Shown here: piece after piece, positions 1,382-17,879 of the stretch
Numbering within the stretch: the first letter of the stretch is position 1
How the letters are laid out: every line of letters begins with the position of its first letter
Assembly (NCBI GenBank): GCA_043812955.1
Contig: JBDRLN010000040.1
Location: 685-64,684 of the forward strand
Direction: 5' to 3'
Length of the DNA: 64,000 bases
From: Candidatus Omnitrophota bacterium
GTDB lineage: Bacteria; Omnitrophota; Gorgyraeia; Gygaellales; Profunditerraquicolaceae
Notes under the pieces: generated by a model
The model's input: the letters and a program-made list of their open reading frames with translations, nothing else
Database searches by the model: none
What the model was told of the DNA's origin: nothing
Translations under genes and position numbers: made by a program

Positions 1382-2677
1382 ATGAAAATAGTATTAATTG
1401 AACCGGCTGCGACAGAGGCGAATGTATATAGTAAATTACGTCTGCCTTTATTAGGCCCGGTATACTTGGGGACTATTCTTAAATGTCGCGGCCACCAGGT
1501 TGAAATTTTTAATGAGGATATTTACCAGCCTGATTATTCCCTTTTGGATGCCGATCTGATTGGTATCTCCGTTCTTACGTCCACATCCCGGCGTGGCTAC
1601 GAGATTGCTAAGAAATTTCCCAAAGAAAAGATAATTATGGGCGGAGTGCATGCCAGCCTTTTACCTGAAGAATCACTTAAGTTTGCTCGCCAGGTAGTGA
1701 TTGGTGAAGCTGAAGATGTGATTATCGACATAGTCGAGGGCAGGCTTAAAGACAAGATTGTCCAGGGCAGGCCGGTTCAGGATTTAGATAAATTACCCTA
1801 CCCGGATTTTTCTTTAATCAAAAACTACAAACCTGGTTCATTTTCTGTCGTTCCGGTTTCTACTTCCCGGGGCTGTCCTTTTGACTGCACATTTTGCGCG
1901 GTAACTAAGGTTTTTGGCCGCGAATACCGTTTCCGCAGCGCGGAAAACGTGATGCGGGAATTGTCATCCCGCGGCGAGAGGCCGCTGTTCTTTTGTGATG
2001 ATAATTTTGCCGCTCATCCTGCGCGGGCCAGGGACTTATTAAAGCTGATGTTAAGAAATAAGACCGGTAAATGGGCTTGCCAGGTGCGCTGTGACGCAGC
2101 TCGCGACAAGGAGTTGTTGGGTTTAATGTCTGAAGCTGGTTGTTCAGTAGTCTGCATTGGATTTGAATCAGTGAATAGTAAAACTCTACAGTTTTATAAG
2201 AAAAAGCAGACCGTCGATGATATTGTGAATGCCATCAGGTCTTTTCATAAAAAAAAGATCAAAGTCCATGGTATGTTTGTTTTAGGCGGCGATGATGATA
2301 CCCGTAAGACAGTTTGGGATACTTTAAAATTCGCCATAAAACAGAAGATAGATACCATACAGATGATGATTCTGACTCCTTTGCCCGGGACAAAAGTTTA
2401 CGATGAATTAAAAGCTCAAAGAAGGATTTTTAATTTTGATTGGTCGCTTTATGATGGCCAGCATGTGGTTTTTAATCCCAAATTGCTTTCCGCCAAACAA
2501 CTCCAGCTGGATGTGATCAAGGCCTATACTAAATTTTATTCCCTATCTAGGCTATTCTCCCTCCTTTTAAAGTTTCGTTTCCGCAATGTTCTATTCCGTT
2601 TTATGGGTTATCGCATCGTAAAAAAATGGAAGCGGAACAATCATAAAATGCCCTGGCTGATCCTAAAATCGGCTTGA
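1382..2677 (+). CDS. B12-binding domain radical SAM protein
   Basis: N-terminal cobalamin-binding-like domain (MKIVLIEP...GISVLTS) and radical SAM motif CPFDCTFCAV. 431 aa. Confidence 0.85.
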   Translation: MKIVLIEPAATEANVYSKLRLPLLGPVYLGTILKCRGHQVEIFNEDIYQPDYSLLDADLIGISVLTSTSRRGYEIAKKFPKEKIIMGGVHASLLPEESLKFARQVVIGEAEDVIIDIVEGRLKDKIVQGRPVQDLDKLPYPDFSLIKNYKPGSFSVVPVSTSRGCPFDCTFCAVTKVFGREYRFRSAENVMRELSSRGERPLFFCDDNFAAHPARARDLLKLMLRNKTGKWACQVRCDAARDKELLGLMSEAGCSVVCIGFESVNSKTLQFYKKKQTVDDIVNAIRSFHKKKIKVHGMFVLGGDDDTRKTVWDTLKFAIKQKIDTIQMMILTPLPGTKVYDELKAQRRIFNFDWSLYDGQHVVFNPKLLSAKQLQLDVIKAYTKFYSLSRLFSLLLKFRFRNVLFRFMGYRIVKKWKRNNHKMPWLILKSA

Positions 2678-2709
2678 ACAAAATCCAGATATAACATATA
2701 ATAAAGCGG

Positions 2710-3813
2710 ATGAAAAACTCTTCAGCTTTAATTTTCGCTATAATCATTCTCTTCGGTTTAATTGGTTTTTCTATTTTGCTGCCGGACATCCTGGCCCAGA
2801 CTCAGCCTAAAGAAGCGCTCTACTATCAAAAATTAGATAAAAAATCAGTACAGTGTCAGTTATGCCCCAGAAACTGTGTTATATCAGCGGGGAAGCGCGG
2901 GTTTTGCGGGATAAGAGAGAACCGGGACGGTAAATTATACGCGCTATCTTACTCTAAGCCGGTAGCTATTCATGTCGACCCCATTGAGAAAAAACCATTA
3001 TTTCACTTTCTGCCTGGTTCCCGGGCATTTTCAGTTGCTACAGCCGGGTGTAATTTAAAGTGTAATTTTTGCCAGAATTGGGAGATCTCCCAAAAAATAC
3101 CCGAAGAGGTTAATTTTGTTTATATGGCTCCGGAAGAGCTGGTACGTCAGGCAGCTGCTTCAGGGGCTAGGAGTATTGCTTATACTTATACGGAGCCGAC
3201 TATATTCTATGAATACATGCTGGATACGGCCAGGCGAGCCAAGTTGCAGGGCCTAAAGCATGTCATGCATTCCAGCGGTTATATTAATGAAGAGCCCTTA
3301 AAGGAATTATGCCTTTATCTTGACGGGGCTAATATAGACTTAAAAGGATTTAGCGAAGAATTCTACGCTAAAATGTGTCAGGGGGCTCTTGAACCGGTTT
3401 TAAAAAGCCTGAAAGTCTTAAAAAACGCCGGCGTGCATCTTGAGATCACTAATTTGGTAATTCCCGGAGCAAATGATGACCCGGAATTAATTAAGAAGAT
3501 GTGTTTATGGATAAAAGATAATTTAGGGGCTGACACGCCCCTGCATTTTTCCCGTTTTTATCCTTTGTATAAATTAAGCAGCCTTAGCCCTACTCCTTTA
3601 GAGGCCTTGGAGAGAGCCAGGCAGATAGCAATAGATGCGGGATTGAAATATGTATATATAGGTAACTTGGCCGGCCATCAGGCGGAGAATACAAATTGCC
3701 CGAAATGTTTGAAGCAAGTTATCGGGCGCCAAGGCTACATTATAACTGAAAATAACCTGGAAAAAGGTAGGTGTAAATTCTGTGGAGAAAAGATTGAAGG
3801 CATATGGGAATAA
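2710..3813 (+). CDS. amrS: AmmeMemoRadiSam system radical SAM enzyme (PFL-activase-like)
   Basis: Radical SAM CNLKCNFCQNW, an N-terminal Cys cluster CQLCPRNC...FCG, and a C-terminal CPKC...CKFCGE. The architecture matches the TIGRFAM AmmeMemoSam_rS family. Confidence 0.85.
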   Translation: MKNSSALIFAIIILFGLIGFSILLPDILAQTQPKEALYYQKLDKKSVQCQLCPRNCVISAGKRGFCGIRENRDGKLYALSYSKPVAIHVDPIEKKPLFHFLPGSRAFSVATAGCNLKCNFCQNWEISQKIPEEVNFVYMAPEELVRQAAASGARSIAYTYTEPTIFYEYMLDTARRAKLQGLKHVMHSSGYINEEPLKELCLYLDGANIDLKGFSEEFYAKMCQGALEPVLKSLKVLKNAGVHLEITNLVIPGANDDPELIKKMCLWIKDNLGADTPLHFSRFYPLYKLSSLSPTPLEALERARQIAIDAGLKYVYIGNLAGHQAENTNCPKCLKQVIGRQGYIITENNLEKGRCKFCGEKIEGIWE

Positions 3814-5368
3814 TGCGGAATTAAATGGCGTAGCAATGGGATTAATCCGGATAATCTTTATTTTTACTCTGTGCTCTGTGCTCTGTGCTCCTAGCTCATG
3901 GGCTGAAGAAATCAAGCAGCCGAATGTTGCCGGTAAATTCTATCCTGATAATTCCCGGGAATTATCAGGCCAAGTAGATAAATACCTCACTGAGGCAGAG
4001 CCTGAAACTATTAACGGAGAAATATTCGCCTTAGTTGTCCCTCATGCTGGTTATGATTTCTCCGGGCCAACCGCGGCTTATGCCTACAAATTAGTCAAAG
4101 ATTTACCTTATAAAACTGTAATTATTATTGCTCCCAGCCATTATTATGGATTCCGGGGAGTTTCAGTATATCCTTCGGGATTTTTCCGGACTCCTTTAGG
4201 CGATATTGAAATCGATAAGGATTTTGCTTCTAAATTGCTTTATCGGGATCCGGAGATATTGTTTGAGCCTCAGCCTTTTGCCCAGGAACATTCCGTAGAG
4301 GTCCAGCTTCCGTTTTTGCAGAGAAGTCTTTCTGACTGGAAAATCGTTCCTATTATTATGGGTGATTGCACTCTGTTAACCTGTAAAAAACTAGCTGGCT
4401 TAATTAAAGAAGCAGTTGGCCTGCGTAAAGATGTTTTGGTGGTAGCTTCCACTGATATGTATCATGGCCATGATTATCAAGAATGCCCGATAGTTGATAA
4501 CCTAACCAGCTCTTTATTAAATAATCTGGATGACGAAGGACTGTATTATGGTTTGCGCGAAGGTAAATTACAACTTTGCGGAGGCCTGCCGGTTGTAACT
4601 ACTTTGATTTTGGCCAAAAGCCTGGGACATATTGAGTCCAAGCTTTTAAAATATACCAATTCAGCTGAAGTAACCGGAAACAAAATTAAAGGGGTTTGGA
4701 CAGTAGGGTATTCCAGTTGGGCTATTGATGCTTCGACAGAGCAGGGCATCGACCCTGAGCAGGGTCGAAGGGTCGATCAGAGTCAAAATAAGGGGGAGGC
4801 AGGGATGTTTAATCTAAAACAAAAGAGGAGATTAATAGAGATTGCCCGTTCTTCAATAGAGGCCTATTTAAAAACCGGCAGAAGGCCGGAGGTTAAAGAG
4901 TCTGATCCGCAGTTGCTTAAATCAATGGGGGCTTTTGTAACTTTAAATGAACACGGCCAGTTACGCGGCTGTATCGGTAACCTTATCGGAAACCAGCCGT
5001 TATATCTTACAATTAGAGATATGGCAGTAGAGGCAGCAGTAAGCGACCCGCGTTTTTTGCCAGTCAAATTAATTGATTTGGCAAATATTGAAATTGAAAT
5101 TTCAGCGCTTTCTCCTATGGAAAGGGTTGATTCTGCGGATAAGATTATTTTAGGTAAGCACGGAGTATTGGTAAGAAAAGGTTTTAAGAGCGGAGTATTT
5201 CTTCCCCAGGTAGCTACTGAAACCGGATGGTCAAAAGAGGAATTTCTGGCTAATTTATGCAGCCATAAAGCAGGGTTAGCGCCAGATGCCTGGAAGGATA
5301 AATTGGTTGAACTTTATATTTTTAATGCCGAGGTTTTTTCCGAGAAAGAATTAAAGGCCGATGAATAA
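3782..5368 (+). CDS. Fusion of Memo-like protein (AmmeMemoRadiSam protein B) and AMMECR1-domain protein (protein A), with a signal-peptide-like N-terminus
   Basis: Memo motif VVPHAGYDFSGPTAAYAY in the N half and AMMECR1 motif GAFVTLNEHGQLRGCIGN in the C half. The N-terminus MGLIRIIFIFTLCSVLCAPSSWA-EE has an alternative start at 3836. Confidence 0.8.
   Translation: MEKRLKAYGNNAELNGVAMGLIRIIFIFTLCSVLCAPSSWAEEIKQPNVAGKFYPDNSRELSGQVDKYLTEAEPETINGEIFALVVPHAGYDFSGPTAAYAYKLVKDLPYKTVIIIAPSHYYGFRGVSVYPSGFFRTPLGDIEIDKDFASKLLYRDPEILFEPQPFAQEHSVEVQLPFLQRSLSDWKIVPIIMGDCTLLTCKKLAGLIKEAVGLRKDVLVVASTDMYHGHDYQECPIVDNLTSSLLNNLDDEGLYYGLREGKLQLCGGLPVVTTLILAKSLGHIESKLLKYTNSAEVTGNKIKGVWTVGYSSWAIDASTEQGIDPEQGRRVDQSQNKGEAGMFNLKQKRRLIEIARSSIEAYLKTGRRPEVKESDPQLLKSMGAFVTLNEHGQLRGCIGNLIGNQPLYLTIRDMAVEAAVSDPRFLPVKLIDLANIEIEISALSPMERVDSADKIILGKHGVLVRKGFKSGVFLPQVATETGWSKEEFLANLCSHKAGLAPDAWKDKLVELYIFNAEVFSEKELKADE
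3867..3890 (+). repeat. Heptanucleotide tandem repeat (CTCTGTG)x3 inside the 5' coding region
   Basis: Three exact direct copies of CTCTGTG encode LCSVLCSVLC of the signal-like segment. The unit length is not a multiple of 3. Confidence 0.8.
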
Positions 5369-6026
5369 ACATTTTATTCTGAATATGTTTTTAACCGGCT
5401 TATTATTCGGCTCAGGCCCTTGCTTAGCCAGCTGCGGCCCCATCCTGGTAACTTATATTGCCGGGACTAAAAAGAATATAGCTAAAGCCGTAATCAGTTA
5501 TGTTTTATTTTCTTTAAGTCGAATATTGGTATATCTGGTTTTAAGCCTGGCAATTTTTTTTATCGGGGCATTAAGCGTTGAGAAGATTAGCCTTAATTAT
5601 TCCGGGCTGGTATATAAAATTGGAGGCGGTTTTATTGTTTTGATCGGATTATTTATGGTTTTAGGGAAAAGAATAGGGTATCCGCATTTTTTAAATAGCC
5701 TGAGCAAAGGGCTCTTAGAAAAAGATAAGAAAAGTGTTTGTTTATTAGGTTTAATAGTCGGGCTGCTTCCTTGCGCGCCGTTATTAGCGGTATTTTCATA
5801 TATTGCCCTGGCAGCTAAGTCTACTCTTGAGAGTTTAGTTTATGGCCTATCTTTTGGAATAGGCACGATTCTTTCTCCTTTGATTTTATTAGTAATAGCC
5901 AGCGGGGCATTATCCGGTTTTATCCGCAAAAAAGAAGAGGTATATCGGCGGGTATTTAGTCTGGCCTGTGGATTAATTATTATTTTCTTAGGTCTACAAT
6001 TGATATTAAGAGGGATTAATGGTTAG
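5361..6026 (+). CDS. Polytopic membrane protein, DsbD_2/UreH-like family (CxxxC in the first TM)
   Basis: About 6 TM helices, GSGPCLASCGPIL and LLPCAPLL motifs. The family call is from memory and unverified. Confidence 0.45.
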   Translation: MNKHFILNMFLTGLLFGSGPCLASCGPILVTYIAGTKKNIAKAVISYVLFSLSRILVYLVLSLAIFFIGALSVEKISLNYSGLVYKIGGGFIVLIGLFMVLGKRIGYPHFLNSLSKGLLEKDKKSVCLLGLIVGLLPCAPLLAVFSYIALAAKSTLESLVYGLSFGIGTILSPLILLVIASGALSGFIRKKEEVYRRVFSLACGLIIIFLGLQLILRGING

Positions 6027-6753
6027 GGTTTTTTGTTTAAGCAAGGATATTTCGGGGAACAGAATTACGCTTACTGATAAGGATCAGATCCATCATTTAA
6101 GAGATGTTCTAAGGCTAAAAAAAGATGAGAAAATTGTTGCCTGCGATGAAAAAGGAGATGAATATATTACTCTGATCGATAGTATTAAACCGGGGGATAT
6201 GGTCTTAAGGATTAAAGAGAGAAAAGTATTGGTTATGGATAATAAGCCGAAGATCACTATTGCCTGCGCTATTCCTAAGAAATCCAATATGGATGATATT
6301 ATTGACAAATTGACTCAAGTGGGAGTGGATAGGATAATTCCTTTACAGACCGAAAGAGTTATTGTCAGGATCGGGCAGGATAAAAAGATATTCCGCCAGG
6401 AGCGCTGGAATAAGATTGCGCTTAATGCCAGCCGGCAAAGCCTGAGAAAGTTCCTGCCGGTAGTGGATCCGATTAAGGATATAAAAAAGGTTTTAACTGA
6501 TTTGGATGAGTTTGATTTAAGATTAATACCCACGCTTGAAGGCAAAAGAATTACCATAAAAGAAACCTTAAAAAATCCAAACTTGAAGAATATTATTGTA
6601 TTTATCGGTCCGGAGGGAGATTTCACGCTTGAGGAAATAGCCTGGGCCAAGAAATCAGGCTGTATCCCGGTTACCTTGGGAGATTTGGTTTTGAGGGTTG
6701 AGACCGCGGCTGTTGCGGTTGCCGGTTTCCTGAGGTTTTATGAAAACCGCTAA
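6019..6753 (+). CDS. rsmE: 16S rRNA (uracil1498-N3)-methyltransferase RsmE
   Basis: PUA-like N-terminus and a C-terminal SPOUT fold with IGPEGDFT...LG motifs. Confidence 0.85.
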   Translation: MVRVFCLSKDISGNRITLTDKDQIHHLRDVLRLKKDEKIVACDEKGDEYITLIDSIKPGDMVLRIKERKVLVMDNKPKITIACAIPKKSNMDDIIDKLTQVGVDRIIPLQTERVIVRIGQDKKIFRQERWNKIALNASRQSLRKFLPVVDPIKDIKKVLTDLDEFDLRLIPTLEGKRITIKETLKNPNLKNIIVFIGPEGDFTLEEIAWAKKSGCIPVTLGDLVLRVETAAVAVAGFLRFYENR

Positions 6754-8101
6754 CCCTTCGACTGGGCTTAAGGGTAATGGAGAGCGTAGTCGAAGAGTTA
6801 GGCTAATCACCCTGGGATGTAAAGTAAATCAATATGAGACCCAGGTAATCCGGGAAAATCTTCTTAAGGCCGGATTCAAAGAATCAGAAAAAAACCTTCC
6901 CGCTGATATCTACGTTATTAATACCTGTACAGTTACTCATAAGGCTGATCAGGAATCGCTTTATTATATTAATCGATCAAGGCGTCTTAACCCCAAAGCG
7001 AAAATTATTGTAACCGGATGCCTGGCTGAATTGGATAAACGGATTATTTCCCGCCAAAAAGGAATAAGCCTCATTGTTAAGAATAAAGATAAATATAGAA
7101 TAGCTAAGTTGCTAAAAGGTTCAGGCTCTAACAATGGCTCAAATATAACCGGTTTTCATAAACATACCCGGGCATTTCTTAAGATCCAGGATGGCTGTGA
7201 TAATTTTTGTACTTATTGCAAGGTTCCGCTGGTCCGGGGCGCTTCCCGCAGCCGGCCATTAAGCGAAATACTGGAAGAAGCCCAGGCTTTAGTGAAAAAT
7301 GGTTTTAAAGAAATAGTCTTGACCGGAATATGCCTAGGGTCGTATGGAAAAGATGTGGGTAGAGGTAAAGGTAGAGGTAAAGGTAGAGGTAAAGGCATAG
7401 ATTTAGTTGGGTTAATTAAAGAGCTGGAAAAAATAAAGGGGTTAATCCGGATTCGCTTGAGTTCTATTGAGGCCAAAGATGTAACGGATGAGCTTATTGG
7501 CAGGATAGCTAAATCTAAAAAATTATGCCGGCACCTGCATATACCTATTCAAAGCGGAGATAACCAGATCTTAAAGGCGATGAACCGTAAATATTCCCGT
7601 CAGGATTACCTGGGCCTGGTCAGAAAGATTAAAAATAATATTGCGGATATTGCTATTACTACCGATTGTTTAGTCGGTTTTCCCGGGGAAAGAGAAGATA
7701 ATTTTCAGAATACCGTGGATTTAGTTAAAGAGATAGTTCCTCTAAAAGTGCATATATTTCCTTATAGTGAAAGAAAAGCCACTTCGGCCTATAATTTAAA
7801 AGATAAGATCCCATCCAATATTGTCAGGGACAGGATGATTTACCTTAAAATAATTGCTAATAAATGCGCTTTAGAGTTCCGGAAGAAATTTCTCGATAAG
7901 AGGATGGATGTTTTAATTGAAGGGATGGTCAAGGGTAGCCAAGGTCTTTGGCAGGGCCATACTGATAATTACCTTAAAGTCATGGTAACATCTGATAAGG
8001 ATATCCGCAATCGCATCCTATTGGTTAAGTTAAAAGATATAAAAAGGGACAGCGACTATTTTCTTGCGTCAAAAAGGAAACGGGGTCAGAATTATTTTTA
8101 G
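6740..8101 (+). CDS. mtaB: MiaB-family methylthiotransferase (MtaB-like), carrying an internal (GRGK)3 insertion
   Basis: N-terminal MTTase domain (ITLGCKVNQYETQ), radical SAM CDNFCTYC and a TRAM-like C-terminus. The 3' end reads into the left REP half. Confidence 0.85.
   Translation: MKTANPSTGLKGNGERSRRVRLITLGCKVNQYETQVIRENLLKAGFKESEKNLPADIYVINTCTVTHKADQESLYYINRSRRLNPKAKIIVTGCLAELDKRIISRQKGISLIVKNKDKYRIAKLLKGSGSNNGSNITGFHKHTRAFLKIQDGCDNFCTYCKVPLVRGASRSRPLSEILEEAQALVKNGFKEIVLTGICLGSYGKDVGRGKGRGKGRGKGIDLVGLIKELEKIKGLIRIRLSSIEAKDVTDELIGRIAKSKKLCRHLHIPIQSGDNQILKAMNRKYSRQDYLGLVRKIKNNIADIAITTDCLVGFPGEREDNFQNTVDLVKEIVPLKVHIFPYSERKATSAYNLKDKIPSNIVRDRMIYLKIIANKCALEFRKKFLDKRMDVLIEGMVKGSQGLWQGHTDNYLKVMVTSDKDIRNRILLVKLKDIKRDSDYFLASKRKRGQNYF
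7358..7393 (+). repeat. In-frame minisatellite (GGTAGAGGTAAA)x3 inside mtaB
   Basis: Three exact 12-nt copies encoding GRGKGRGKGRGK. Related GGTARAGGTA repeats occur in intergenic DNA at 16231-16261 and 58713-58807. Confidence 0.85.
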
Positions 8102-8852
8102 TTAGATTTTCCCTTCTTATACGTCTATTAATATTAGAAGGGAGGATTTTATGGCTAGAAGACCGCGTTTATTTGTATCTGGTATACCCTACCACGTTGT
8201 TCAGCGAGGCAATAATAAAATTCCTATTTTTTTATCTGATCAGGATTACCGTTTCTTTTTAGATGTACTTCAAGAAGCCAAATCTAAACACCCATGTTTT
8301 ATTTATAGTTATTGTCTGATGCCTAACCATTTTCATTTACTTATTGAACCCAAGGAAGAAAATAATGTCAGTCTATTAATAAAGTTATTGGGAGCTAAAT
8401 ATGTGAGATATATCAATAAAAACTATGAACGTTCAGGCACTCTATGGGAAGGCCGCTTCAAATGCTCATTGATTGATAAGGAGTTATATTTTTTAACCGT
8501 TCTTCGTTATATTGAAATGAATCCGGTAAGGGCTGGCATAGTTAATTCTCCGGAGTTGTATCGGTGGTCGAGTTATCGGGTCAGGGCAATTGGTGAAAGA
8601 AGTTTTATTGTAGATATGGATCCTTGGTATGATAACCTAGGTTCTAATACAGAAGAACGTCAAAATAAATATCGGCAATTCTTCCAAAATTTAATACCTG
8701 ATCCCGCTTTGCACCTTCTAAGAGAAATGACAAATAAGAATGGTATCGTAGGCAGTATAAATTTTAAATCACGGATTGAACAATCTATTCATAAAGAAAT
8801 TGTTATAAGGTCAGCTGGTAGGCCAAAGAACGAAAAATAATTCTGACCCCAT
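8082..8852 (+). mobile_element. REP-associated tyrosine transposase (RAYT) flanked by the two halves of a REP palindrome
   Basis: GGGGTCAGAATTATTTTT at 8082-8099 and AAAAATAATTCTGACCCCA at 8834-8852 are reverse complements. The same palindrome occurs uninterrupted at 13897-13938 and 44418-44474. Confidence 0.8.
8151..8840 (+). CDS. rayT: IS200/IS605-like Y1 transposase of the RAYT type (Transposase_17)
   Basis: HUH motif NHFHLLIEP and catalytic Tyr region YVRYINKNYERSGTLWEGRF. 229 aa. The stop codon lies inside the right REP half. Confidence 0.85.
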   Translation: MARRPRLFVSGIPYHVVQRGNNKIPIFLSDQDYRFFLDVLQEAKSKHPCFIYSYCLMPNHFHLLIEPKEENNVSLLIKLLGAKYVRYINKNYERSGTLWEGRFKCSLIDKELYFLTVLRYIEMNPVRAGIVNSPELYRWSSYRVRAIGERSFIVDMDPWYDNLGSNTEERQNKYRQFFQNLIPDPALHLLREMTNKNGIVGSINFKSRIEQSIHKEIVIRSAGRPKNEK

Positions 8853-8857
8853 TAAGG

Positions 8858-9028
8858 ATGGGTGTTTTGATTGAAGGCATGATTAAGGGTAGCCTTAAGT
8901 TTTGGCAGGGCTATACCGATAATTACCTTAAGGTCAGGATTGAGTCTAATAAGGATATCCACAATTGTATTTTAGCGGTTAAGTTAAAAGATATAGAGCG
9001 GGATTATTTCATAGGTCAGAGGAAATAG
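8858..9028 (+). pseudogene. Diverged duplicate of the mtaB 3' end (C-terminal TRAM-region fragment)
   Basis: Translates MGVLIEGMIKGSLKFWQGYTDNYLKVRIESNKDIHNCILAVKLKDIERDYFIGQRK, about 65% identical to MtaB residues MDVLIEGMVKGSQGLWQGHTDNYLKV...LVKLKDIKRD. About 70% nt identity to 7908-8060. Confidence 0.6.
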
Positions 9029-13938: not shown

Positions 13939-13966
13939 TTTTAAGACAGGAAAGGAGATGATATTA

Positions 13967-14134
13967 GTGCCGGAGATCGAGATTAAAAAAGGTGAGTCTT
14001 TTGAAGGGGCAATGCGCCGTTTTAAGAGAAAGATCGAAGAGGAGGGGATCTTAAGGGAAGTAAGAGACCGCAAACATTATGAAAAGCCCAGCGAGCGGAA
14101 AAGAAAGAAAGCGAAGCAAAGCAAGAGAAGATAA
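13967..14134 (+). CDS. rpsU: 30S ribosomal protein S21 (GTG start, missed by the ORF track)
   Basis: [67 protein letters not shown] lies 6 nt upstream of GTG. Stop TAA at 14132-14134. Confidence 0.85.
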
Positions 14135-14378
14135 TGGGTTGCGCTCTTTCTACTTCCAGGAACGCCTTTCGGTATTCCCGTGGTTTAAGATTAATTCAGG
14201 AGATAAAATCCTTAGGCCTTGATTGGGTAGAATCTAGTTTTAACCTTACCTGTTCAATGTTTGAGGAGATCGAAGATTTAGTTTAAAAAAAGATTTATAC
14301 AAGCTGCCAGTCTGCACAACTTTTGCCCTATGCTGCGGGGCGTAGAAAGAGAAAAGGCCCTTCCCGATTATTCTTGGT

Positions 14379-15212
14379 TTGACTCGATATATGGAAAAGA
14401 ACAAGATAAGAAAAGCTGTAGTCGCCGGGCAATTTTACCCTTCTTCAAAAGAAAATATTATAAGTCAGATAGAAGGCTGTGTTGGTAAACAGGCGGGTGT
14501 ATCCAATTGTTTGGCCTGTATGCTTCCTCATGCCGGGTATATGTATTCCGGAAGGGTAGCTATGGAAACAATCTCCCGGATAAAAATCAGAAGAAAGATT
14601 ATACTCTTAGGGCCTAATCATAGAGGATATGGCCCGCAGTTCAGCTTGATGGGGGAGGGGATTTGGGAAACCCCATTAGGCGGGATTAAGATTAATACTG
14701 ATTTAGCTAAAGATTTACTTCAGTCTTCAAAATACTTTAAAGATGATTATCTGGCCCATACTTATGAGCATTCTTTAGAAGTAGAGTTGCCGATATTGCA
14801 ATATTATAATCCTGATTTTGAAATTGTCCCGGTTACAATACTATCTCAGGATAAAGCTGCTTTAAAAGAGGCGGGCCGGGAGATCGCAGATGCCGTTAAA
14901 ACTTCTGATAACCGGCAAGAGATAATGTTAATAGCCAGTTCTGATATGACTCATTATGAGCCTCAAAAAGAAGCAGAATATAAAGATAAAGAAGCTATAC
15001 AGGCTATCTTAGATTTAGATGAAGACAGGCTTTACGATTTAGTAAAAAAGATGAATATTACAATGTGCGGCCTTGGTCCGGTGATAACTATGCTTAGCGC
15101 TGTTAAATTGTTAGGGGCGAAATCTGCCAAATTAATCCGGTATGAAACCAGCGGCCAAGCCAGCGGGGACTATGAAAACGTGGTGGGTTACGCCGGGATA
15201 ATAATATTTTAA
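14379..15212 (+). CDS. Memo-like protein (AmmeMemoRadiSam protein B family), second paralog
   Basis: MLPHAGYMYSGRVA motif, and the overall Memo fold is conserved (LGPNHRG...HSLEVELP). Confidence 0.8.
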   Translation: MTRYMEKNKIRKAVVAGQFYPSSKENIISQIEGCVGKQAGVSNCLACMLPHAGYMYSGRVAMETISRIKIRRKIILLGPNHRGYGPQFSLMGEGIWETPLGGIKINTDLAKDLLQSSKYFKDDYLAHTYEHSLEVELPILQYYNPDFEIVPVTILSQDKAALKEAGREIADAVKTSDNRQEIMLIASSDMTHYEPQKEAEYKDKEAIQAILDLDEDRLYDLVKKMNITMCGLGPVITMLSAVKLLGAKSAKLIRYETSGQASGDYENVVGYAGIIIF

Positions 15213-15224
15213 AGGAAGACATAT

Positions 15225-15572
15225 ATGGATGAGAAAGAAAAGAGCATTGATGAGAGTTGGAAAGAGACTGTTGCCAAGGAAAAAAAATCATTAAAGGATG
15301 GCGAGGGTTTTATTCCTCCTGAGCCGGATTTTTCTTTTTTTATCACTACCTTATCCCTGCAAGCATCTATTGCCCTGGGAAAGATACCTAACCCCGGGAC
15401 TAATCAAAAGGAAGATAATCCTGAGCAGGCAAAATTCATTATTGATACCTTGGCTATGTTAAAGGAGAAGACCAAAGGGAATTTAAATAAGGAAGAAGAT
15501 GGGCTATTAGATAACCTGCTTTATGAACTAAGGATGGAGTATGTTTCCTTGTCGAAAGAGAGGCCAAAATGA
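15225..15572 (+). CDS. DUF1844 domain protein
   Basis: FFITTLSLQASIALGKIPNPGTNQKEDNPEQAKFIIDTLAMLKEKTKGNL matches the DUF1844 signature, recalled from memory. Confidence 0.65.
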   Translation: MDEKEKSIDESWKETVAKEKKSLKDGEGFIPPEPDFSFFITTLSLQASIALGKIPNPGTNQKEDNPEQAKFIIDTLAMLKEKTKGNLNKEEDGLLDNLLYELRMEYVSLSKERPK

Positions 15573-15721
15573 TTGATAAAGAGCTTTTGGATATCCTGGC
15601 TTGCCCGGCTTGTAAAGGGGATGTGGAGTTAAAAGAAGAAAAAATAGTTTGTATCAAGTGCGCTAAGAGATACCCTATTAAAGACGGTATCCCGGTAATG
15701 TTGATTGACGAAGCCGAATAG
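15569..15721 (+). CDS. Trm112-like (UPF0434) small zinc-ribbon protein, under 60 aa and absent from the ORF track
   Basis: MIDKELLDILACPACKGDVELKEEKIVCIKCAKRYPIKDGIPVMLIDEAE. The ATG overlaps the previous stop (ATGA). Confidence 0.65.
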   Translation: MIDKELLDILACPACKGDVELKEEKIVCIKCAKRYPIKDGIPVMLIDEAE

Positions 15722-15778
15722 TTTCGGTGTTCGGGTTTCGGCCATAGGCCGCTAACAGCTAACAGCTAACTAAACCAT

Positions 15779-16210
15779 ATGAAAAGAATACTCGTAATAC
15801 ATGGGCCTAATCTAAACCTGCTTGGCCAGAGAGAACCGGCAATCTACGGCCGGGTGACCTTAAAAAGCATAAATCAGGCTCTAAAGAAAATAGCCGGGAA
15901 AAAGAAAGTTAGTTTGATTATTTTCCAGTCTAACCATGAAGGCGAAATAGTCGATAAAATCGCTGAGGCCGAAAATAAATATCAGGGGATATTAATAAAT
16001 CCCGCCGCCTATACCCATACCAGCGTAGCGATCAGGGACGCACTCAGCGCTTGCAGTAAACCGGCTGTTGAGGTCCATCTATCCAATATTTATTCCCGGG
16101 AAGAATTCCGGCAGAAATCATTAGTCAGTCCTGTAGTCAGAGGGACGATTATGGGATTTGGCAAGGATAGCTATCTGTTGGGATTAGAGGCCCTTTTGGA
16201 TATAATATAA
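15779..16210 (+). CDS. aroQ: Type II 3-dehydroquinate dehydratase
   Basis: [24 protein letters not shown] ... HLSNIYSRE. Confidence 0.9.
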
Positions 16211-16230
16211 TTAATCAAAAAACTTAATTA

Positions 16231-16261
16231 GGTATAGGTAAAGGTATAGGTAGAGGTAGAG
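16231..16261. repeat. GGTATAGGTAAAGGTATAGGTAGAGGTAGAG microsatellite-like repeat, intergenic copy
   Basis: Same GGTARAGGTA unit as the mtaB in-frame repeat. Confidence 0.7.
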
Positions 16262-16281
16262 ATTTATTCAATAGGCAGAGT

Positions 16282-17316
16282 ATGAATAGCAAGCTAAAAG
16301 ATATTTATCGGAAATTAGATCAAGAAGGTCTGGACGCCTTGTTGGTTATTTCTGCGGCCAATATCTCTTATCTGGCTGGTTTTCCAGCTCAGGATGCTTA
16401 TCTTTTGATTTCAGTAAAGAAGAATATCTATTTTACTGATAGCCGATATCTTAACTCAGCCGCAAAGAATTTATTGGGTTGCGGCCTTAAAGAGATTAAT
16501 ACCGATGCCTTTGACAGGATTATTAATACTTGCGCTAAGTTGGGATTAAAAAAGGTGGGATTTGAAAAAGATTATTTGACTTTCACGAGATACCAGGAAT
16601 TGAGGGGAGGGCCAGGGATAGAACTGACCCCGGTTTGCGGTTTTGTAGAGGAATTAAGGCAGGTAAAGGATGCGGAAGAGTTAAGGAAAATCCGTATTGC
16701 CGCTGACCTAGCCAGAAAAGCCTTAAAATATATTAAAGATATTATAGTTCCCGGCAAAAGGGAGATCGAAGTGGCCGGGGAATTAGAGCGTATCTTGCGT
16801 TATGCGGGGGCTTCTAAATCCTCTTTTGATATAATAGTAGCTTCAGGCCCTAATTCCAGTTTTCCGCATTATATTACTGGCAAGAGAAAGATCCGGGATA
16901 ATGAGCCGGTGTTAGTGGATGTTGGGGCAGATTATCTGGGGTATAAATCCGACTTGACAAGGGTTTTCATCTCAGGTAAAATAGACACTCTTTACAGGAA
17001 GATACAGGAAATAGTTTTCAAAGCCCGGGATCTGGCTATTCAGCAGATAAGGCCGGGTAAGAAGGCTCAAGATATTGATTCTGCTAGCCGTTCTTATATA
17101 GCTAAAAAAGGGTTTGGGAAGTATTTTGTCCATAGTTTAGGCCATGGCCTAGGTTTAGAGGTTCATGAGGGGCCGCGCTTATCCCCAAAAAATGGGAATG
17201 TTCTGAAGGCCGGAATGGTATTGACGGTTGAGCCGGCTATATATATACCGGGAAAATTCGGGTCAAGAGTAGAAGATATGGTTATAGTTACCAGGAATGG
17301 ATGCGAGGTGCTTTAG
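16282..17316 (+). CDS. pepP: Xaa-Pro aminopeptidase / M24 family metallopeptidase
   Basis: Creatinase-like N-terminus and M24 fold with HSLGHGLGLEVHE metal ligands. Confidence 0.85.
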   Translation: MNSKLKDIYRKLDQEGLDALLVISAANISYLAGFPAQDAYLLISVKKNIYFTDSRYLNSAAKNLLGCGLKEINTDAFDRIINTCAKLGLKKVGFEKDYLTFTRYQELRGGPGIELTPVCGFVEELRQVKDAEELRKIRIAADLARKALKYIKDIIVPGKREIEVAGELERILRYAGASKSSFDIIVASGPNSSFPHYITGKRKIRDNEPVLVDVGADYLGYKSDLTRVFISGKIDTLYRKIQEIVFKARDLAIQQIRPGKKAQDIDSASRSYIAKKGFGKYFVHSLGHGLGLEVHEGPRLSPKNGNVLKAGMVLTVEPAIYIPGKFGSRVEDMVIVTRNGCEVL

Positions 17317-17879
17317 TGGGATTTTCCATCAATGAAATTAAAAATGGCTTGACTTTGTTGATCGATAAAGAAGCTTATGTAGTTATTGATTGTCAACAGG
17401 TCAAGCCGGGAAAAGGCGCTGCCTTTGTCCGGATTAAAATACGTAATCTTAAAACCGGCAATGTCCAGGAAAGGACATTCAGGGGCGATGAAAAGATCGA
17501 GGAGGCTTATATTGAGGAACGCAAACTCCAGTATCTTTATGCCTCGGGAGAGATGTATCATTTTATGGACCAGGAGAATTATGAAGAGCTGGCTATTGCT
17601 AAAGATGTTTTAGGTGATAAGGCTAAATTCCTTAAGGACAATCTGGATATTATCGCCTCTCAATATAAAGAAAAGATTTTAAACGTGAGTCTCCCTAATT
17701 TTGTTGAGTTTAAGATTGTTCATACCGAACCGGGTATTAAGGGTGATACTGCTAAGAGCGGAACTAAACCCGCGGAGATTGAGACCGGGGCAAGTATCCA
17801 GGTCCCGCTTTTTATCAATACCGGGGACAGGATTAAAGTTGATACGCGCTCGGGTAGTTATATTGAAAGAGCGGCCTAA
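17301..17879 (+). CDS. efp: Elongation factor P
   Basis: GLTLLIDKEAYVVIDCQQVKPGKGAAFVRIKIRNLKTGN. The true start may be GTG at 17319. Confidence 0.9.
   Translation: MRGALVGFSINEIKNGLTLLIDKEAYVVIDCQQVKPGKGAAFVRIKIRNLKTGNVQERTFRGDEKIEEAYIEERKLQYLYASGEMYHFMDQENYEELAIAKDVLGDKAKFLKDNLDIIASQYKEKILNVSLPNFVEFKIVHTEPGIKGDTAKSGTKPAEIETGASIQVPLFINTGDRIKVDTRSGSYIERAA

Follow-up and report, generated by a model that had tools for sequence, protein, structure and literature searches.

A 64-kb stretch of DNA from a Candidatus Omnitrophota bacterium (64,000 nucleotides of contig JBDRLN010000040.1, analysed as a whole and referred to here as the window) carries a variant of the AmmeMemoRadiSam system at positions 2710-6026. 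At this locus, the radical SAM (S-adenosylmethionine) enzyme of the system (rS) is encoded directly upstream of a single polypeptide that joins the Memo (B) and AMMECR1 (A) proteins, and the gene for this fusion is followed by one for a polytopic membrane protein of the Pfam DsbD_2 family. Conserved hydrophobic segments head both rS and the fusion, and among the Omnitrophota loci surveyed the DsbD_2 gene is found only where the rS gene adjoins that of the fusion. On balance, we lean towards a reading in which the locus is an intact, envelope-directed subtype of the AmmeMemoRadiSam system, whose CcdA-like DsbD_2 partner would supply reducing power to an exported rS.

The core proteins of the locus

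All of the open reading frames (ORFs) that a preliminary description of this DNA, made from its letters alone, had placed in the region are present, and its assignment of an AmmeMemoRadiSam locus is borne out by hidden Markov model searches, in which each of the three core proteins exceeds the cut-off of its family model. The rS protein (2710-3813, + strand), which is PFL-activase-like (PFL, pyruvate formate-lyase), scores 391.4 bits on TIGR04337 (AmmeMemoSam_rS; cut-off 220) and 79 bits on Pfam Radical_SAM, with the models for the activases PFL-AE, NrdG and YjjW remaining sub-threshold at 53-58 bits. Its CX3CX2C cluster motif can be read at residues 114-121 (CNLKCNFC, 3049-3072), where the three Cys residues are invariant in an alignment of homologues, and is accompanied by extra groups of Cys residues at 49/52/56/66 and 330/333/355/358.

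The fusion is encoded by an ORF on the + strand that opens with a GTG at 3782 and has its likely start at an ATG at 3836, ending at 5368. Its Memo domain (3914-4723, residues 45-314 of the 528-amino-acid form) scores 244.6 bits on TIGR04336 (cut-off 26) and 189 bits on Pfam Memo, and its AMMECR1 domain (4829-5338, residues 350-519 of the same form) scores 179.8 bits on TIGR04335 (cut-off 99) and 184 bits on Pfam AMMECR1. The predicted metal-site motifs of Memo (PHAGY, SH, EHS, DMYHG and LCGG) are intact, as are the AMMECR1 motifs RGCIG and DPRF, and these residues are invariant in the alignment of fusion homologues; motifs of the latter type (RGChG and DxRa) have been proposed as the active site of AMMECR1 (Balaji and Aravind 2007, PMC2034487).

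The description of this protein as a B-A fusion is correct, but such a fusion is not exceptional. The protein is identical (100%) to a deposited 528-amino-acid protein named 'AmmeMemoRadiSam system protein B'; among the approximately 8000 database proteins that match it, the best 120 all carry both Pfam domains, and many homologues bear the JGI name 'protein B/protein A'. Both the neighbourhood of AMMECR1, radical SAM and ring-opening dioxygenase genes and AMMECR1-dioxygenase gene fusions were described in 2007 (PMC2034487). The fusion of B to A is thus common and not new in itself.

Conserved hydrophobic segments at the N-termini of rS and the fusion

We identified in the fusion a predicted cleavable signal peptide of the general secretory (Sec) type at 3836-3904 (MGLIRIIFIFTLCSVLCAPSSWA, followed by EE), and few of the 120 closest homologues lack an equivalent. 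Its layout, MGLIR / IIFIFTLCSVLC / APSSWA|EE, corresponds to an n-region, an h-region and a cleavage site, and heuristic tests for a positive n-region, a hydrophobic h-region and small residues at -3 and -1 all agree with a Sec-type signal. Of 117 homologues, 113 have A, S, G or C at -1 and about 101 have a small residue at -3, with the site lying at a fixed distance before IKQPNVAG, the first Memo motif (consensus CFA|QD; SWA|EE in the window).

As the ORF extends upstream of the ATG at 3836, the position of the start bears on this assignment. The stretch 3782-3835 overlaps the conserved C-terminus of rS (GKCKFCGEKI) in another frame, which is why N-terminal extensions of the 'MENVNFAERKL' type look conserved in homologues; judged from the reading frames, these extensions are best regarded as artefacts of the overlap, the real N-terminus being the hydrophobic segment that follows the ATG, itself 22 nt beyond the rS stop at 3813. 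Since both possible starts lie upstream of the hydrophobic segment, it belongs to the protein either way, and the objection raised in the preliminary description, that a downstream start might remove the segment, fails.

The preliminary description overlooked a comparable segment on rS. Residues 1-29 of rS (2710-2796; MKNSSALIFAIIILFGLIGFSILLPDILA, then Q) are hydrophobic, end in ILA|Q and precede the match to the family profile, which starts at residue 38. A hydrophobic N-terminal segment is present in 62 of 64 Omnitrophota rS orthologs, with a median uncharged span in the h-region of 22 residues and Kyte-Doolittle values of 2.5-3.3. In both proteins the flanks of the segment are asymmetric in charge: the charge of the N-flank exceeds that of the C-flank in 53 of 64 rS orthologs (about +2 versus about 0) and in 70 of 76 fusions (about +2 versus about -1), a positive-inside bias that predicts an N-in/C-out orientation for each. 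The N-terminus of the window rS, MKNSSALIFAIIILF, contains no RR, KR or RK and does not match the twin-arginine translocation (Tat) motif S/T-R-R-x-F-L-K. Tandem paralogs of rS, each with a hydrophobic N-terminus, were seen at some other loci (L012, 7107-8297 and 8794-9894; L106, 319-1443 and 1455-2603).

A natural triple fusion bears on the relative placement of these domains. In P0075, an 854-amino-acid protein (L168, 5001-7565) represented on 6 contigs from 3 samples, rS, Memo and AMMECR1 are joined in a single chain, and its gene is followed by those for DsbD_2, RsmE and MtaB. The first hydrophobic segment is kept, and the internal signal peptide is deleted exactly at the predicted cleavage site. 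As a single chain without an internal signal, P0075 places all three domains in one compartment. A second apparent triple fusion, at L063, proved spurious, since a masked run of N joins two genes there; P0075 is left as the sole real case.

Export signals on the system in other lineages

To follow the N-terminal segments beyond Omnitrophota, we used an exhaustive search with rS, which returned 1729 cluster representatives at E<=1e-30. Many of these homologues carry an N-terminal extension of about 45 residues with a twin-arginine signal (SRRDFIK, TRREFL, SRRRFLG), and others have no extension. A set of 80 metagenome loci (L088-L167) was then fetched, and among its 82 rS ORFs a strict RR motif was found in 44 and a KR or RK variant in 23, frequencies that are biased upward by the scan seed, an alignment of 7 Tat-bearing rS sequences. 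The partner that adjoins rS in this set is almost always a Memo-AMMECR1 fusion, and 43 of 44 such fusions bear a signal of the Sec or lipoprotein type. In addition, 47 of the 80 loci encode a polytopic membrane protein of 710-840 amino acids with a Spermine_synth domain, resembling proteins annotated as 'fused MFS/spermidine synthase' (MFS, major facilitator superfamily), as at L141 (4345-6471), L119 (2907-5030) and L162 (4519-6942). A regular-expression hunt for TatA in the fetched loci gave nothing usable. We also noted that 25 of the 82 metagenome rS ORFs have a CxxCH motif, as in c-type heme sites, placed after the twin-arginine signal and ahead of the radical SAM core (for example at L109, L118, L122, L148 and L157), often after a conserved 'ARYW'; the window protein has no CxxCH.

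Judging from these signals and gene neighbourhoods, the export-signal-bearing, fused and membrane-partnered form of the system is widespread. The proteins of the system had been taken to be cytoplasmic in the preliminary description, a baseline that fails for this large subfamily, given the Tat signals on rS and the Sec or lipoprotein signals on the fusions of many homologues.

It could be argued that the segments in the window are uncleaved anchors that hold the enzymes on the cytoplasmic face, where they would act on a membrane-proximal or membrane-embedded substrate, with DsbD_2 serving as a membrane partner or transporter. This arrangement would require no supply of SAM, electrons or Fe-S clusters outside the cell, and it fits both the long, very hydrophobic h-region of rS and the lack of an RR motif in the window protein. 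It sits less easily with the charge bias, which predicts N-in/C-out and not N-out, with the conserved small-x-small site of the signal-peptidase type, which stands at a constant position in the fusion, and with the unambiguous Tat and lipoprotein signals that other phyla carry at the same position. We regard anchoring on the cytoplasmic face as unlikely for these reasons.

A DsbD_2 membrane protein is lost together with rS

The CxxxC membrane protein that had been noted as overlapping the fusion gene downstream (5361-6026, + strand; its first 8 nt are shared with the end of the fusion gene) belongs to Pfam DsbD_2 (PF13386), scoring 81.1 bits against a cut-off of 24.9. We sought to determine how consistently its gene accompanies the system by surveying one locus per species in 80 Omnitrophota species, of which 71 loci had enough flanking sequence to be scored for gene adjacency; two loci, L056 (overlapping ORFs) and L063 (the masked N run), were corrected. 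The rS gene lies directly upstream of the fusion gene in 59 of the 71 loci. DsbD_2 accompanies it in 52 of these 59 and is missing from 7, is absent from all 12 loci without an adjacent rS, and in no case occurs without rS. A quick neighbour-joining tree of the fusion proteins implies at least 8 losses of rS adjacency, each accompanied by the absence of DsbD_2. With the fusion gene standing between the two, their joint disappearance cannot be put down to a single deletion. Where both an adjacent rS and DsbD_2 are missing (12 loci), the fusion retains its signal peptide and motifs.

In four of the seven loci with rS and without DsbD_2 (L045, L076, L081 and L083), a spermidine-synthase-like membrane protein is encoded instead, and at three of these four rS has a Tat-like 'MTRKEFLK' start. 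The co-loss with rS and the apparent alternation with the spermidine-synthase-like protein mark DsbD_2 as a membrane partner linked to rS, and it looks as if DsbD_2 has largely replaced the spermidine-synthase-like protein in Omnitrophota. The preliminary description had proposed two additional partners for the system; DsbD_2 is a genuine one in Omnitrophota, and the other, a B12-binding-domain radical SAM protein, is discussed below.

Three Cys residues of the membrane protein, Cys21 and Cys25 (GPCLASCGP) and Cys138 (LPCAPL), are invariant in 56 DsbD_2 orthologs and also in 2 distant relatives that adjoin radical SAM proteins of this family; one distant relative passes the classical DsbD_TM model. 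The invariant residues stand in Pro-Cys contexts in transmembrane helices (TM) 1 and 4, as in CcdA and DsbD, and we infer from motif context, rather than from a residue-level structural alignment, that they may be equivalent to the active-site Cys residues of CcdA. Single-sequence and profile searches of the PDB with the DsbD_2 protein gave no match, leaving fold comparison as the only informative approach: the closest solved fold, and the top match by 2 structural methods, is the electron transporter CcdA (PDB 5VKV), with identity to CcdA and DsbD of about 14-20%. The other of the two distant relatives, encoded at a metagenome locus (L104, 129-1487), joins its DsbD_2 domain to a NapH-like Fer4_5 4Fe-4S domain, and the end of its gene overlaps the start of an AmmeMemoSam-type radical SAM gene directly downstream.

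Annotation of this family points elsewhere, and a second alternative takes DsbD_2 to be a small-molecule or metal transporter of the LysE superfamily, delivering metal to the Memo site or moving a substrate or product, and not an electron conduit. NCBI and JGI annotations name these proteins TauE/SafE ('sulfite exporter TauE/SafE family') or, in one case, RcnA; NCBIfam yields a single, weak match, to the efflux permease ArsG (41 bits; cut-off 200); a DsbD_2 relative has a weak Pfam LysE match; and Pfam DsbD_2 includes UreH-like putative nickel permeases. However, a Pfam scan of the protein (E<=0.001) returned only DsbD_2 and DsbD_TM, with no TauE match to back the NCBI name. A transporter serving the Memo site also accords poorly with the finding that DsbD_2 co-varies with rS and not with the fusion, which is intact in the 12 loci lacking both, as well as with the invariant Pro-Cys contexts in TM1 and TM4, the top structural match to CcdA and the fusion of a DsbD_2 domain to a 4Fe-4S domain beside a radical SAM protein of this family. 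We consider the transporter reading improbable.

An envelope-directed reading of the locus

In the envelope-directed reading that we prefer, rS and the fusion would reside in the periplasm or on the external side of the cytoplasmic membrane and would act there jointly on a substrate located in the envelope. DsbD_2 would carry reducing equivalents across the membrane for rS, either keeping its cluster-binding Cys residues reduced or feeding it electrons.

Several considerations weigh against this reading. To our knowledge, no radical SAM enzyme works outside the cytoplasm, and we know of neither SAM nor a low-potential reductant being available in the periplasm; a full-text search of the literature likewise returned no report of a radical SAM enzyme in the periplasm or elsewhere outside the cytoplasm. 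The rS protein of the window has a very hydrophobic h-region resembling those of Sec and signal recognition particle (SRP) substrates, with no twin-arginine motif. Proteins cross the membrane unfolded by the Sec/SRP route, which is not known to permit the insertion of Fe-S clusters, and the Sec-like signal of the Omnitrophota rS is hard to reconcile with such insertion. On the side of the membrane protein, DsbD_2 misses the cut-off of Pfam DsbD_TM (PF02683; 24.5 versus 27.1 bits), the structure model used for the fold comparison is of moderate confidence (predicted local distance difference test, pLDDT, 66.5), and no thioredoxin-like partner is evident among the annotated neighbours. Some weight must also be given to the nature of the analyses: the signal peptides were assigned by heuristic sequence criteria rather than by a dedicated predictor, the Tat frequency in the metagenome set is raised by its seed, the tree is a quick one, and the co-occurrence pattern records adjacency only, so that rS may sit elsewhere in some genomes.

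A more far-reaching version of the envelope-directed reading would have the whole subfamily work extracytoplasmically, making rS the first extracytoplasmic radical SAM enzyme, exported in the folded state by Tat, often with a CxxCH motif, and paired with a spermidine-synthase-like partner in most phyla, and equipped in Omnitrophota with a Sec-like signal and a CcdA-like DsbD_2 that brings reducing power across the membrane. We put this forward tentatively, as a possibility that we would not yet call probable. No functional study of the AmmeMemoRadiSam system was found in the literature.

Transcription and the downstream genes

The genes for the fusion, DsbD_2, RsmE and MtaB overlap throughout at their start and stop codons, suggesting co-transcription, and the genes from rS through MtaB probably form one operon. 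The ATG of rS has no Shine-Dalgarno sequence, and a promoter-like match (TTGAAC-17-TATAAT, 2674-2702) ends 7 nt before it; given these two features, a leaderless transcript could start at the rS gene. A promoter scan of the region gave 24 matches against 22.6 expected in shuffled sequence, and hence no enrichment. An Rfam search of the region found no RNA family, and PADLOC returned only generic radical SAM similarity with no defence-system assignment.

The two genes that complete the putative operon, neither of which featured in the preliminary description, code for the 16S rRNA methyltransferase RsmE (6019-6753, + strand; TIGR00046, 149 bits against a cut-off of 41) and the tRNA methylthiotransferase MtaB (6740-8101, + strand; TIGR01579, 434 bits against 357). 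They are near-universal downstream neighbours of the system in Omnitrophota, RsmE following the fusion or DsbD_2 in 67 of 68 loci and MtaB following RsmE wherever the contig reaches. This association, with its overlapping start and stop codons, could be taken to reflect a shared role in cytoplasmic RNA base modification, in line with the RNA base modification role predicted for AMMECR1 by Balaji and Aravind (PMC2034487). Against this stand the export-type N-termini of both system proteins, membrane partners that point to the envelope, and the absence of RsmE-MtaB from 79 metagenome loci of non-Omnitrophota type. As the link is confined to Omnitrophota, it is better explained by inherited synteny than by shared function; an RNA-modifying role is very unlikely in our estimation, and RsmE is probably co-transcribed without being part of the system.

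Within MtaB we noted a short (GRGK)n repeat insertion (GRGKGRGKGRGKG, window 7340-7400), of which the opposite strand reads PLPLPLPLPLP. The mtaB gene is followed by a gene for an IS200-type Y1 transposase (8151-8840), and behind this lies a 56-amino-acid ORF (8858-9028, + strand) that shares 64% identity with the C-terminus of MtaB, apparently a remnant of a duplicate mtaB 3' end next to the inserted IS200-type transposase.

The csp and B12-binding radical SAM genes upstream

Upstream of rS on the + strand lie two csp genes (872-1072 and 1160-1366; Pfam CSD domain, 104 and 72 bits) and a gene for the B12-binding-domain radical SAM protein (B12-rSAM, 1382-2677). B12-rSAM carries both domains of a class B radical SAM protein, with Radical_SAM (PF04055) at 83.7 bits and a marginal B12-binding domain (PF02310) at 32.5 bits against a cut-off of 32.1. 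It reaches no NCBIfam equivalog; the best-scoring one, HpnJ, is matched at 131.6 bits where 577.6 would be needed. Both csp genes are present as the preliminary description had them, and B12-rSAM adjoins the system as it reported; neither, however, is a member of it. An ortholog of B12-rSAM adjoins the system locus in 1 of the 71 surveyed species, a 79%-identity relative with the same gene order. Orthologs at 70-75% identity are common in Omnitrophota, where their surroundings are unrelated; two of the three examined (L172, 5158-7287; L173, 5725-7299) directly follow csp genes, with no AmmeMemoRadiSam genes nearby. Judged by this distribution, csp and B12-rSAM constitute a separate module that stands beside the system only in this lineage, and the recurrence of csp genes upstream of B12-rSAM orthologs suggests that a csp/B12-rSAM module is conserved in Omnitrophota. 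A six-gene expanded system with B12-rSAM, and possibly the csp genes, as functional partners could draw on the shared strand, the short gaps (15 nt from the second csp gene to B12-rSAM and 32 nt from there to rS), the lack of a terminator-like structure between these genes and the same order in the 79%-identity relative, but nearly the whole 64-kb window lies on one strand, which makes shared strand weak evidence, and adjacency in 1 of 71 species, with orthologs in unrelated contexts and in 2 of 3 cases behind csp, renders such a system highly improbable.

Features around the first csp gene were also recorded. A strong sigma-70-like promoter match lies ahead of it in the window stretch 719-871 (TTGACA-16-TAGAAT with an upstream TG, 11/12), its long leader contains a very stable hairpin and U-run (z = -4.5), and a terminator-like hairpin with a U7 run follows it at about 1088-1141.

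A second Memo gene in the window

The second, unfused Memo paralog that had been reported at 14379 is real (ORF 14379-15212, with the protein assigned to 14391-15212, + strand; TIGR04336, 308 bits). It shares 30% identity with the Memo domain of the fusion, its N-terminus, MEKNKIRKAVVAGQFYP, is not hydrophobic, and it has no signal peptide; by these features it appears to be a canonical B protein of the cytoplasmic type. It lies in a block (window 13958-17879) with S21, DUF1844, a Trm112-like protein, type II dehydroquinase, an M24 peptidase and EF-P. At another locus (L005) the same housekeeping block directly follows MtaB; in the window, MtaB and the block are separated by the insertion of genes for a transposase, a binding protein and a chemoreceptor and of two unknown ORFs.

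Implications and relation to known systems

Conservation of MEMO1 and AMMECR1 extends from archaea to humans, in whom they are linked to disease; their biochemistry is unclear, and the bacterial three-gene system offers the best handle on it. What is novel here is a variant of this known and uncharacterised system with Sec-like signals and a CcdA-like partner. The export signals on both enzymes, together with dedicated membrane proteins, narrow the search for a substrate to the envelope rather than RNA, and a false lead is removed by placing the B12-binding radical SAM gene outside the system. If the envelope-directed reading is true, it implies a route by which SAM, or a SAM-derived cofactor, and electrons reach the periplasm, and it would confine the substrate of the Memo and AMMECR1 enzymes to the cell envelope, at least in these bacteria. 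Whether a radical SAM enzyme can function outside the cytoplasm thus becomes a sharp and testable question.

Compared with the canonical AmmeMemoRadiSam system (TIGR04335 for A, TIGR04336 for B and TIGR04337 for rS), the locus described here likewise passes the three models, has intact catalytic motifs and keeps rS next to the sequence coding for B and A. It differs in having B and A as one polypeptide, in the export or anchor segments on both of its polypeptides and, in Omnitrophota, in DsbD_2 as a conserved fourth component. The Tat-type loci of other phyla share with it an export signal on rS, a Sec or lipoprotein signal on the fusion and one membrane partner, whereas the rS of the window is Sec-like with no twin arginine, and its partner is DsbD_2 and not a Spermine_synth protein of about 710-840 amino acids.

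With respect to CcdA and DsbD, the membrane protein of the window has an extra invariant Cys (CxxxC in TM1), belongs to Pfam DsbD_2 and misses the DsbD_TM cut-off; moreover, no thioredoxin-like or cytochrome c maturation genes lie nearby, and its presumed client is a radical SAM enzyme. The PFL activating enzyme family resembles rS in its sub-threshold similarity and in having the same cluster motif; rS differs in its extra N- and C-terminal Cys clusters, its signal or anchor segment and the lack of a glycyl-radical enzyme nearby. Finally, eukaryotic MEMO1 and AMMECR1 belong to these two domain families as well and share the conserved motifs of the active site, but are separate, intracellular proteins without a known radical SAM partner, whereas the bacterial fusion carries a predicted signal peptide.

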